A stretch of DNA of 63,387 bases, filler included, from Octopus bimaculoides (lineage: Eukaryota): NCBI RefSeq assembly GCF_001194135.2. It is 6 parts of 6 records of this genome, joined end to end, with 100 filler letters (N's around TTAATTAATTAA, not from the genome) between each part and the next. Parts side by side here need not be neighbours in the genome. Positions count along the whole stretch, not along the records: positions 1 to 29,471 come from NC_068983.1; positions 29,572 to 37,145 come from NC_068994.1; positions 37,246 to 45,772 come from NC_068985.1; positions 45,873 to 58,076 come from NC_068986.1; positions 58,177 to 60,711 come from NW_026312738.1; positions 60,812 to 63,387 come from NC_069003.1. The stretch is one strand, 5' to 3'. A model generated the notes under the pieces. It had not been told where the DNA came from. It saw only the letters and a program-made list of their open reading frames with translations, and ran no database searches. Below are positions 3,725 to 63,352 of this stretch, one piece after another (position 1 is the first letter of the stretch; each line of letters opens with the position of its first letter). Made by a program: the position numbers and the translations under genes.

Positions 3725-3785
3725 AGAATACTCATATATAGTTAAATGTTAAACTTCTGGAAAGTTTTGCAGATTTTTACAGGTC
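3725..3785 (-). mobile_element. 3'-terminal fragment of RLE non-LTR element, family B
   Basis: Encodes PVKICKTFQKFNI*, matching the C-terminus of the copy at about 46455 (TVKICKTSEKFIV*). Its 5' side abuts (ACAT)n. Confidence 0.7.
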
Positions 3786-5203
3786 TATGTGTGCATGTAT
3801 GTATGTATGTATGCATATATGTATGCATGTATGCATGGATGTATGCATGGATGTATGTATGTATTTGTGTTCCTCTGTTTATATTAGCATCTGCATTTGT
3901 TATTTTACTTTGTGCTGTGTATAATTTTCTTCGCGGTAGTTCGTGCCAATTCTGTCTTTTTAATTGAACATATTTCACACTGTTTCCTTTTGTGTAGAAC
4001 ATTAGCTAGTGTTTTTAAGAAAACATCAATATTAGAAGTAGTTCTCATAAGTGTTTTTTTAAAAAAAAACAACAAATGTAGACATCAAGTAAACATCGGT
4101 GATATATTCGAGAATGATTTGTGTTAAATAAACTAGTGATACGAAACAAAAAGAAATCTATATGAACGGTCGCTTAAAATTTAAAGAAGTCCCATGGAGC
4201 TTTTTACAAGTGGTTTTCTTTACTTTATAGTGTTAACCAGTTAACTATATGTGATTGTATATAGTATCTCACGCTTGATATATACGGATCGATCATTCAA
4301 TGTTATACACTATGTAATCTGTTAAAGGAAGCATTATATCCCATCAGCATTCAATGTATAAAATGTACTCTAAGATCTGAAATTTCATGTAACCCATGAA
4401 ATGCCATCCGTCATATTTTAAATCATTTAATAGAAGAAATGTACTCAAACCACTGTGATGTGAAAAACTGTTTTTATTTATGTGAAGAATACTACCGATG
4501 TTATTTCGAATTTCCTTTTAAATGTGCCATTAACGTTTATCAATTGAGTATTACGTTGTAAAGTATTGCATCTTTATATTGATATCATATTTGGGTCGCC
4601 AATTTTTGGGGTATTCTTTCTTGATATGTTATGCGAACGTTATAGGTGATTTGGTTGTGTAAGATAATGAAAATTGCTCTACAAGATATGATCATTGAAA
4701 TCCGTTTATATATGAGATGAAATAATCAGATATGAGAAGTATCTCTCAAATGGTTTATTGTATTTCAGTGAAATAAGATCAGAATTTTTTCTGTTTTATT
4801 CAGAAATCTCGAGAAGCGCTGCTTCATACTTAAAGTGTCTACTGAATGTTATAAGATATATTACATGTAAGTATATGTGTGGGAGGCTGTGTTTTCCCTG
4901 AATCCTGACACTTAATATGTCTATGATCTATGAGGTACCATCGCAATTGCATAAAGATAAAAGTAATTTCATTGACAGCGGGGAGGGTAACGTTTTGAAT
5001 TACAAAATGAAAATGAGATAAAATTAAAAAACTTAAGAATTAAAACGAAATATTAAATATCGTTTTAAATTTTGGAATTTGTTGCATTTTAAAATTTTAG
5101 AATCTATTTTTCAATAATTCTATTTTTGAATCATTTTGGAATCTATTTTCTTTTTTTTTCTAGTTAATTGTAGTTAATTTTTGTTTATTTTCACATCATT
5201 AAA

Positions 5204-6334
5204 ATGGAATGTCAAGTTAAGAAAAACGAGCATTTTCGACACTTTTCCCTCGAGTGAAGATGCTTTAATCAAGGTTCTAAGGCCGCAAACCTGTTCGAGA
5301 CATTTGCGTTGTGTATGGAGAGGGTACCATAGCTGAAAGAACCGCTCATAATTGGTATGCCAAGTTCAAAAATGGACATTTTGACCTCAAAGACGCACCT
5401 CGTACTGGCCGTCCAGTTTAGTTCGATAAAAAACGATTAAACCAACTTTTGCACGAAAATTCTCGTCAAACGACAAGGGAAATGGTAGAGAAAATTGAAT
5501 GCTCCCACACTGCTATAGAGAAGCATCTTCACTTGAGGGAAAGATTCAGAAGTATGTAGCATGGGTTTCGCATGCTTTAAGTGACAACAAAAATCAACGA
5601 CCCACAATCTCCGCTGCTTTGCTTGCTCGTCACAGCTCAAGTCATGGACACAAGCAACGATTTCTTTACCGAATCGTTACTGGCGACGAAAAATGGTGCA
5701 TGTATATCAATATGAAGCAGCGTAAGGAATGGTTTAGCCCCCGTAAACGAGCGACACCACGCGTGAAACAAGATCTTCATCCGCTTAAAACGATGCTGTG
5801 CGTATAGTGGGACTGGGAAGGGATTATCCATTACGAATTGCTTGAACTGAACCAAACGGTCAACGCGGACCTCTATGTTCAACAGATGGAACGACTCTGT
5901 TCAACAAGGCTATTCAAGAGAAAAGACCTAATCGGCAGCATAGATTTCGTCTGCTGCACGACACCGCCTGGTCTCATATTGCCAATATGAAACAAGGAAG
6001 CCATTCAGATGCATGGCTGGGAAGTGCTGGCACACCCGCCGTACTCTCTTTAATTGGCACCAACGGATTTCCACCTCTTTCGATCTCTTTCAAATGCTAT
6101 GCGCGGAGTTTCGTTCAAAACTGATGCAGAATTGAGAACTTGGTTGGATCAATTTTTCGAGTCGAAATCGGGTGATTTCTACCAACGTGGTATTGAAAAT
6201 ATTGTTGAACGTTGGAAAGAAGTTGTAAACAACAAGGGTGAATACATTATTGATTAATTAGTTGTTATTTTTATTAAACCTTTAAAAAAATTTAAATAAA
6301 AACAAACGGTGGGAACTTAGTTGGCAACCCAATA
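5204..6334 (+). mobile_element. Mariner (DD34D) transposon with frameshifted transposase; right TIR present, left TIR not found
   Basis: MECQVKKNEHFRH..., HTH region, WVSHAL (WVPHEL-like), TGDEKW, LHDTAWSH (HDNARPH-like), HPPYSL*LAPTDFHLF (YSPDLAPSD-like), stop at 6257. TIR-like aacggtgggaacttagttggcaacccaa followed by TA at 6333-6334. Confidence 0.95.
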
Positions 6335-61202: not shown

Positions 61203-62042
61203 GCCATGGTAACGAGGCTGAAGTACGCAGAGTGAAACCACTGGGCACAGATCGAACTTGAACTCTGCTATGCATACACACAAGGTCTTAACGTTCTAGC
61301 TCACTTCCACTGTTTACAGCAGTATTTGTAGCGTGAGACCGTCGCGGTGACCATAACAGAAAAAGTTGTCATGGCGATACCTGCTCAGAGGCCAACACCA
61401 AGTTGCAAAAAGTTTATGGAGAGGAGTGTATGAACACTCAAGTGTAAGATTGGTTTACACGTTTCCAAGATGGCCGAAAATATCTCGATATTGACGAAGG
61501 TTCTTGGACACTCGTAACCAGCAGAACTGAGAAAAACATTACTGGTGTGCGTGCAGCTGTGAGGGGAAATCATCGAATAACCATCCGTGAGTTACCAGAA
61601 GTTGTGCAAGTTAGCTACGGTTCAGTTCAATCGATTATCAATAAAGATTTGTGTATGAGACACGTGCCTGTCAAGTTTGTACCAACACTGCTTTCAGCTG
61701 ACCAAAATGACACTTGGGTTTCAGTTGCTCAAAATCTCTTTGAGTGTGTCGAGAACGAGGAAAATCTTTTGAAAAGTTTGCATAGGCCTCTGTACAGGTA
61801 TCGCGAAGCTTTTCGCAAAATTTGATGCAGCTTCTCTGTTCAACTTTGTAATAATCAATGCGACGATCACACGCTATACACTCTACCTGCAAGCATTGCT
61901 GTAAAGATCAGAAGTAAGCTACAACGTTAAAACTTAGTGTGCATGTCCATAAGATTTCAATCTGTGCCAATCGGCTTCACTCTGAGTGCTTTAGCTTCGT
62001 TACTATGGCAACAGTCCACATACTTATTGTTCAGACCACGTA
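61203..62042. mobile_element. Mariner derivative made of two convergent 5' ends
   Basis: Plus strand: 5' UTR and transposase N-terminus (KLQKVYGEE..WFTRFQDGR..NHRITIRE..KFVPTLL) to about 61775. Minus strand: terminus cgtggtctgaacaataagt with TA at 62041-62042, then EQRSCIKFCEKLRDTCTEAYA. Arms match 41 of 50 at 61203-61252 versus 61960-62009. Confidence 0.85.
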
Positions 62043-62799
62043 TACATATGTATGTATGATATATATGTATGTATGTATGTATATATGAATGTGTGTGTGT
62101 ATATATATATATATATATATAATAATATTATTAGGGACAAAATCCAAAATTACAGGTAAAAAGCTCAATTAAAATCAATTTATAAAAAATTAAAATTAAA
62201 TTGAGCCTTATAGATAAAGTATATATAAAATATATGTAGTTTTAGGGAAAATAACCAATTTTCAAGAACTCATCGATGTTTTTTGTATATAATATACATG
62301 TTATTATTATGGATGAAGGGATGATTATTGAATGGTTATTATTTTGATATCATGATATTTTTAAAATAATTTTTCTATCTTTATATAATAAGTATTCATA
62401 TTAATTCATTTGGTACTTATTGTTGGTTGAGATATATATCNNNNNNNNNNNNNNNNNNNNNNNNNNNNNNNNNNNNNNNNNNNNNNNNNNNNNNNNNNNN
62501 NNNNNNNNNNNNNNNNNNNNNNNNNNNNNNNNNNNNNNNNNNNNNNNNNNNNNNNNNNNNNNNNNNNNNNNNNNNNNNNNNNNNNNNNNNNNNNNNNNNN
62601 NNNNNNNNNNNNNNNNNNNNNNNNNNNNNNNNNNNNNNNTATATATATATACATGCATACATATTTGTATGTATATGTAAAATACATATATCCCTCTGTG
62701 ACTGTACATACATACATGCATACACACATACATACATACATACATACATACATACATACATACATACATACATACATACATATATAAATATACATGTAT

Positions 62800-63352
62800 C
62801 CGCAAAATGACTGTCCTGAAATAACTTAGAAAATCTCTGTTATGGACTACATTCATAAACACCAACTCTAGGAATACTGGTGGAATATTCCGAGATCAAA
62901 ACCTTTGTCAAATGTAAACATAACAAGCCAGATATTGTTGTTTGGGGCAGAGGGGCAAAAGTATGTACCATCAGAGAGATTAGCTGCCGCGCAGATATAC
63001 ATATCTCTTTGAAAATCAAAGAAAAAGAGGAAATCAATGGACAACTGCTTCGAAACCTTCAGCTTCTACATCCAGACTGTGAATTCATATTCATACCAAT
63101 AATAATTGGAGCTCTAGGTTTGTTAGCAAATGCTTAAAGGAGAATCTGGATAAACTGGGATATTCAGAAAGAGAAACAGACCGGCTGATTCATACATTAC
63201 AAGAGGAATTTGTGAGGGGAACAGTAAAAATATGCAAGTTCCAAACGTGAACTTGTCTGGTTTAAATGCATCACAAAGATGGAGCCGTGGATCGTTGTTG
63301 GAAACCGGTTCCCTCAGTGGAAGATTTATAATAATTAAAGAAATAGGAGACA
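62800..63352 (+). mobile_element. RLE family B, 5'-truncated, between (ACAT)n tracts
   Basis: EYWWNIP..IKTFVKCKHNKPDIVVW...EISCRADIHISLK...FIPIIIGALG. The 3' UTR runs into gACATACATAC, and (TACA)n lies upstream. Confidence 0.9.

Follow-up and report, generated by a model that had tools for sequence, protein, structure and literature searches.

Targeting of microsatellites by long interspersed elements (LINEs) is already known, and the mechanism is not new. The reported targets are ACAY for Waldo, AC for Mino, TC for Kibi, TTC for Koshi and TAA for Dong (PMC3812793), and DongAg and DongBg share the TAA target of Dong (PMC3812793, PMC4640811); here and below, published papers are cited from excerpts. 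Dong is grouped with the elements of the apurinic/apyrimidinic endonuclease (APE) type in PMC3812793; R4 is listed among the clades with a restriction-like endonuclease (RLE) in PMC4640811, where Togen is described as targeting (TG)n and some HERO families as targeting unspecified microsatellites. Dong-R4 is reported from cephalopods, as an abundant class in octopus, with no target stated in the excerpts concerned (PMC9115989, PMC13282606, PMC8967140). Here we describe at least four RLE-type LINE families of Octopus bimaculoides, first seen in a window of 63,387 nt (the whole stretch of DNA that was analysed, from assembly GCF_001194135.2), whose copies adjoin (ACAT)n microsatellites in one preferred orientation. 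Families A, B, D and E, with their relatives from protein and metagenome searches, are referred to below as the lineage.

Like Dong/R4 elements, members of the lineage have one open reading frame (ORF) with reverse transcriptase (RT), CCHC and RLE motifs, and are flanked on either side by microsatellite in one orientation. RT identity between the lineage and TAA-tailed Dong-like elements is 33-35%. The target is (ACAT)n in the lineage and (ACTT)n in its relatives, whereas that of Dong is (TAA)n, and the aligned RLE examples read PD..E..K.xY in the lineage and PD..D..K.KY in Dong. Togen and the microsatellite-specific HERO families, compared by description only (PMC4640811), are likewise RLE elements on microsatellites, with a different motif. 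Waldo (WaldoAg1, WaldoAg2 and WaldoFs1) has an ACAY target, a repeat class shared by families A and B, and is of the APE type, whereas the lineage has a C-terminal RLE (PMC3812793). Waldo is known here, and set apart, by description, and its likeness to the lineage is one of target only. It belongs to the R1 clade, its APE endonuclease precedes the RT, and it has a separate ORF1. R2 (R2Bm, R2Tg) has the same RT-CCHC-RLE architecture and is the source of the mechanism proposed below; it differs in its 28S ribosomal DNA target and N-terminal zinc fingers from the lineage, which has microsatellite flanks and, by eye in its member P0004, no C2H2 pattern at the N-terminus. No RLE element targeting ACAT or ACTT was found in the literature covered, which did not extend to Repbase, and a prior description there is quite possible; the excerpts of PMC13580325, PMC7650587, PMC5035012, PMC6007223 and PMC2887409 contain nothing on ACAT.

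Repeat motif and orientation at the insertion junctions

The first-pass annotation of the window described six fragments of one RLE-type family and the ACAT tracts around them. All of these are present, but the fragments belong to two RLE-type LINE families, A (four members) and B (two members; Table 1), whose RLE regions are ~65% alike and whose RT proteins are 53% identical. Based on genome copies, A was delimited to ~4.0 kb and B to ~3.8 kb. Each search of the genome, which is 2.34 Gb and rich in microsatellites, contributed the best 30 of 40 scored candidates, so that the sample was chosen on similarity to the element and not on its flanks. The 203 chains obtained in 148 loci were reduced to 144 by thresholds of 250 aligned nt and 80% identity and by removal of duplicates, and 19 more were excluded because they lay at a locus edge (12) or next to N (5) or had inversions (2), which left 125 assessable A and B 5′ junctions. 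Pile-up consensuses, which carry frameshift artefacts, were used as alignment rulers only; the copies are at the median 90-91% like the consensus of their own family.

The ACAT preference proposed from the window holds genome-wide. A same-strand ACAT octamer lies within 30 nt upstream of 79 of the 125 junctions and its reverse complement upstream of one (binomial P ~1e-22 for this split). By family, the same-strand counts are 37/61 for A and 42/64 for B, with 0/61 and 1/64 in reverse, and leaving out the two discovery copies gives 77/123. In 5,815 control windows there were 60 forward and 77 reverse octamer matches (137 on both strands), a background of ~1%, and 300-500 nt upstream of the junctions the rate is 2-4%. 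Since 5′-truncated copies score 64/107 (35/57 A, 29/50 B), a 3′ tail alone cannot explain the ACAT on the 5′ side, as had been argued from the window; full-length copies score 15/18 (2/4 A, 13/14 B). Truncated copies of all lengths adjoin the tract. The repeat stands on the sense strand at both element ends, complete 3′ ends continuing into ACAT in 26 of 28 A and 34 of 39 B copies.

The preference is also specific to the motif. Perfect 12-mers within 30 nt of the 125 junctions were ACAT in 66 cases, AC in 3, ACAG in 2, and AT, AG and ATGT in one each, and an AAT 12-mer was found at 0/125 A and B 5′ junctions, so that insertion into (TAA)n was not seen there. In the control windows, 12-mers of AC/GT (62), AT (52) and ACAT/ATGT (60) are similarly common. 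The joins at the 5′ side share 1-3 nt of microhomology with the repeat; over 35 clean junctions the mean is 1.71 nt, against 0.79 for random joining, and none of 20,000 simulations reached 1.71. The reading of target-site duplications or deletions is blurred inside a slipping tandem repeat.

The 3′ untranslated region (UTR) of A contains an internal ACAT-rich patch ~100-130 nt before its end. Besides the 28 A copies with a complete 3′ end, 19, each with over 350 nt of sequence available downstream, end near this patch, and ~10 of these continue into ACAT, as judged by eye.

For families D and E and for two control families, boundaries were set by all-against-all comparison with a 40-nt window, which makes the counts less exact than those for A and B. 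The older family D has same-strand ACAT at 18/30 junctions and the younger family E, whose copies are 94-98% alike in the coding part, at 18/24 (6 of 30 were dropped for N), with 0 in reverse in both. D was placed in the lineage by blastx alone, at 50-54% to P0004/P0009/P0026 versus 24% to the Dong-like P0086 over the same stretch. Family C, a Dong-like control of which a few of the 30 copies fall short of the true 5′ end, has TAA at 18/30 junctions, ACAT at 0/30 and TTA at 0/30. The RTE control (L304-L333, found from L289:4015-4400) has same-strand ACAT at 0/27 and 5′ flanks that mix TA, TG, AGAT and other repeats. ACAT is therefore richer upstream of the lineage than upstream of these other LINEs. 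The tails of the RTE family are of (AT)/(ATGT) type. Family E copies (L334-L363, L291, L292, L294) often stand beside assembly gaps, and longer or younger ones may for this reason be collapsed in the assembly or missing from it.

Coding capacity and lineage

Copies of A, B and E hold a single RT-CCHC-RLE coding region. RT trees set the lineage apart from TAA-tailed Dong-like elements. Among 53 scored candidates of the octopus genome no unbroken ORF was found, and the copies sampled there are old and no longer intact. Unbroken single ORFs occur in relatives (1130-1200 aa) and in the metagenome locus L180 (1153 aa). A putative nuclease domain with R2-type catalytic motifs can be read at the C-terminus, in agreement with the RLE call made from the window. 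Of the R2 motifs, it retains RH, PD, E, the first K and Y, and the second K is replaced in all lineage examples aligned (RH, PD-(D/E) and K..KY as defined for R2Bm; PMC4838377). In the intact relatives, Pfam marks RVT_1/zf-RVT only, the RLE standing at the C-terminus, and no APE domain was seen in them from Pfam marks, motif alignment or structure matches. Pfam gave weak RT and zf-RVT matches alone on the window fragments.

By eye, B (L143:646-670), A (L131, L132), L179 and L180 all start with a short GC-rich hairpin that follows the repeat tract directly; the fold in B is without real covariation support. No credible Rfam match to a ribozyme was found at either 5′ end examined.

The RT of A, used as a query, retrieved roughly 80 proteins that are 42-58% identical to it, many of them full length, with the next at ~35%; the named close relative is from Argonauta hians. 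Full-length lineage proteins of the same length lie on different long contigs (P0139-P0141 and P0146, in the cluster of P0011; P0053, P0054, P0056 and P0216), which suggests recently active members elsewhere. From a metagenome scan, 80 loci were kept and the ends of 23 were read. (ACTT)n was present in three of the five nearest relatives (at the 5′ end of L179, both ends of L180 and the 3′ end of L182), the other two being too short, and most of the distant ones end in (TAA)n. Since the wider lineage includes (ACTT)n-flanked members, the target is better written (ACWT)n. Three TAA-tailed Dong-like metagenome elements (L184, L188, L193) have, by eye, a tRNA-like 5′ start.

In an IQ-TREE RT tree of 42 sequences, A, B and E stand with the ACTT elements, the Argonauta protein and the intact proteins, opposite the TAA-tailed group. 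The branch between the two is 0.54 long with ultrafast bootstrap (UFBoot) 100, and two other trees gave the same split. The tree is unrooted, as the RTE outgroup, on a branch of 4.6, gives no usable root; within a set that holds no named R4, NeSL or HERO references, the nearest group is formed by TAA-tailed Dong-like sequences. This branch and the TAA flanks of family C bear out the difference from TAA-targeting Dong that had been proposed. R2 is a distant match by sequence. In the AlphaFold model of the relative P0004 (predicted local distance difference test score, pLDDT, 83.6), R2 structures are the first matches (E 2e-36, 16-20% identical), ahead of L1; at its N-terminus stands a small helical domain in which no C2H2 pattern can be seen by eye.

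The target preference in these data is real and well supported, and the lineage that shows it is a distinct one of the R4/Dong group. A broader proposal is more tentative and falls slightly short of even odds: that this is an undescribed, deep-branching R4-group RLE lineage, spread across several animal groups and still intact in some, which switched from the trinucleotide TAA to the tetranucleotide (ACWT)n with the third base tuned to the host (ACAT here, ACTT elsewhere).

Origin of the upstream tract and proposed insertion mechanism

Our preferred reading, to which we give a probability of roughly 0.8, is that A, B, D and E are RLE families that lie inside (ACAT)n in one orientation, likely through sequence-targeted target-primed reverse transcription. 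On the observed orientation, motif, placement at both ends, microhomology, domain content and lineage, the wider group is likewise best read as an R4/Dong-group lineage that likely inserts into (ACWT)n by this route, cleavage being a predicted step. By analogy with R2 biochemistry, a tract that already exists would be bound by the element protein, whose PD-(D/E)-K nuclease would nick the ATGT strand. The freed end could then base-pair with ACAU repeats at the RNA 3′ terminus, or with the internal UTR patch of A, and serve as the primer for cDNA. A second cut, in the other strand but still inside this tract, would be followed by capture of the cDNA end through short pairing, so that the element ends up with repeat at either flank. 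The copies that end at the internal patch of A hint at a role for RNA pairing, and the specificity may reside either in protein recognition or in such pairing.

A pre-existing target is seen directly at one site only, where an E copy (L342) lies inside the UTR patch of A, which is uninterrupted in L002, L013 and L028. Tails of earlier elements account for a minority of the tracts: 9 of the 79 immediately follow the 3′ end of an A or B element, and a wider flank test labelled 50 of the upstream flanks single-copy in the loci compared, 16 other repeats and 13 ACAT-tailed repeats. These labels are automatic; by eye four are wrong, two in each direction, which leaves about 13 tails. The first-pass annotation had named it as fatal to its proposal if the upstream ACAT were always the tail of a preceding element; genome-wide, this is not the case. 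In the control loci, 10 of 49 ACAT tracts adjoin a lineage element (17/68 when the window is included); this share is close to ~13/79, and the use of existing tracts would be expected to give such a proportion of tails.

Several observations weigh against our preferred reading. The octamer is missing at 46 of the 125 A and B junctions. Many of these look, by eye, broken by later insertions or deletions, and since the negatives include copies apparently cut in this way, the 63% is likely a floor. A truncated B copy (L037) has ATGT upstream, and a full-length one (L089:1-142) has (GGTA)n, not (ACAT)n, on its 5′ side, which is unexplained. The 5′ junctions have no fixed register (A 15, ACA 15, ACAT 9, AC 9), so that of the enrichment and phase suggested for counting from the window, enrichment alone was found. 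A host-repeat screen for empty sites, covering 59 and then 86 copies, gave one clean case among the 86 two-flank copies, the rest being simple-repeat matches. The filled 5′ tract at L342 is ~66 nt long versus roughly 12-28 nt in the empty patch. At L041, where contigs of four other organisms were compared, the insertion proved to be shared with two of them rather than empty, and it is old, because X14 and X16 bridge the 3′ end of the element and its flank; a second cross-species comparison, whose alignment skipped the repeat, found B-like 5′ sequence in three other organisms. Finally, the RTE control adjoins ATGT at 7/27 5′ junctions, with the opposite polarity and a looser choice, so that tract-adjacent insertion is not unique to the lineage.

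The longer tract at L342 and the cross-species comparison without an empty site would also fit an explanation in which a very short ACAT-like motif, or none, is recognised and the 5′ tract is made at integration, when the RT slips or jumps onto an RNA's ACAU tail, or expands afterwards from a small seed that was duplicated. Microsatellites can arise from LINE tails (PMC2887409), and priming can be steered by repeats in the tail (PMC6007223). Nevertheless, the patch predates the insertion at L342, insertions into earlier tails occur at the share expected from existing tracts, many upstream tracts are compound, degenerate microsatellites, and the RTE control has repeat tails and yet mixes motifs in its 5′ flanks. 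We consider this explanation unlikely.

Passive accumulation in or near microsatellite-rich DNA, with no targeting, has been proposed for Drosophila Waldo-A/B (PMC3812793) and would draw on the very high microsatellite content of this genome and on an RTE control that also adjoins microsatellites. It is already largely refuted by strand and motif bias, and we regard it as very improbable: the strand ratio is 79:1, ACAT decays to background within 200-300 nt, the similarly common AC and AT tracts are almost unused, and TAA is used instead by a sister RLE family of this genome. That the upstream ACAT consists of tails of preceding elements in head-to-tail arrays, as is true of the 46070 copy and of about 13 of the 79, has hardly any chance of being the general explanation, given the 50 flanks with no second copy in the loci compared and the 16 other repeats, although the ACAT-tailed families D, E and B′ were recognised only in the course of the analysis and others may remain unrecognised.

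Fragments in the window and biological meaning

Table 1. Lineage fragments, repeat tracts and a control copy in the window, with positions along the whole stretch
Feature	Position	Strand	Evidence or remark
More distant family of the same lineage, fragment cut by stretch end	29376..29464	+	75% to B
A fragment, 58 nt, truncated at both ends	3728..3785	-	ORF end and 3′ UTR start; 91% to A 3708-3765
(ACAT)n/(GCAT) tract adjoining 5′ junction of the 3728-3785 fragment	3786..3864	-	sequence
A 3′ UTR internal ACAT-rich patch, expanded; copy stops without terminal ~100 nt	34702..34819	-	
5′-truncated A copy, RLE domain (RPD..E..K) and first part of 3′ UTR	34820..35280	-	81% to A 3313-3793
(ACAT)14+ adjoining 5′ junction of the 35280 copy	35281..35348	-	flank beyond is single-copy among loci compared (L001)
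(ACAT)n at 3′ end of internally deleted B copy	43181..43200	-	
B copy, large internal stretches deleted (B 313-466 + 3586-3642 + 3736-3806)	43212..43517	-	
Degenerate ACAT/AC tract upstream of true 5′ junction of deleted B copy	43518..43560	-	sequence
Genuine 3′ terminus of A copy, cut by stretch start	45876..45951	+	92% to A 3849-3925
(ACAT)n, tail of 45876 copy and 5′ flank of 46070 copy (tandem insertion)	45952..46056	+	
5′-truncated A copy through UTR patch, ends short of A terminus	46070..46622	+	46070-46531: 79% to A 3323-3793
(ACAT)n, 16 nt upstream of 5′ junction of 62798 copy	62706..62781	+	
5′-truncated B copy, RLE domain and complete 3′ UTR	62798..63349	+	88% to B 3246-3815
(ACAT)n at 3′ end of 62798 copy, cut by window end	63350..63387	+	
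Dong-like family C copy, control outside the lineage, (TAA)n at both ends	29650..31457	-	RT 32-35% identical to A

With the two families delimited, some readings of individual fragments change. The ACAT at 34780 and 46540, into which preserved 3′ ends had been thought to run, is the internal UTR patch of A and not a tail, the A copies at 34820 and 46070 lacking the last ~100-130 nt of the A 3′ end. The open frame of the former spans 34711-35196, and the latter is followed by (ACAG)n/(AGAT)n. The fragment reported at 45873 does carry a genuine A 3′ end, with the boundaries given in Table 1. The ACAT before the 46070 copy is present as described, but it is the tail of the preceding A copy, so that this one copy is a case of the kind that the first-pass annotation had named as refuting. 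The copy reported at 43196 had not been counted among those abutting ACAT on the 5′ side; its true 5′ end is at 43517, with degenerate ACAT/AC ~10-28 nt upstream, so that this deleted B copy also fits the pattern.

The fragment at 29376-29464, upstream of which no ACAT tract was seen, belongs to a further family, 74-80% to B, that is also present in L262, L270, L280 and L142:4480-5241 and stands outside the junction counts. Alongside the ACAT lineage there are two or more TAA-associated Dong-like families (window 29650-31457(-), 35971-37053(-) and ~52290-52430(-); L149-L178 and L373), the copy at 35971-37053 having (GAA)n on its 5′ side. Other mobile-element fragments lie at 542-907(-), 3251-3553(-), 5499-5807(+) and 32580-33751(+). 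They include an integrase core (Pfam rve_3) and pieces that, by eye, we take to be mariner-like transposase and Tx1-like LINE.

In the published lists, as excerpted, TAA is the target of Dong and (TG)n that of Togen, and Waldo, of the APE type, is the only element given with ACAY. Because a distinct RLE lineage on (ACAT)n/(ACTT)n shares one genome with a sister that targets TAA, matched proteins with different targets are available; owing to this, and to the existence of intact relatives, the way in which R2-like elements read and change their target is directly testable. Cephalopod annotations labelled Dong-R4 likely bring together two or more lineages whose targets differ. About a fifth of the ACAT tracts in the control loci (10/49) touch lineage elements, which is relevant to microsatellite markers. 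If the broader proposal above is true, the (ACWT)n lineage would be a natural series for mapping target change in an R2-like protein, and it may explain a sizeable share of the ACAT microsatellites in octopus-like genomes.

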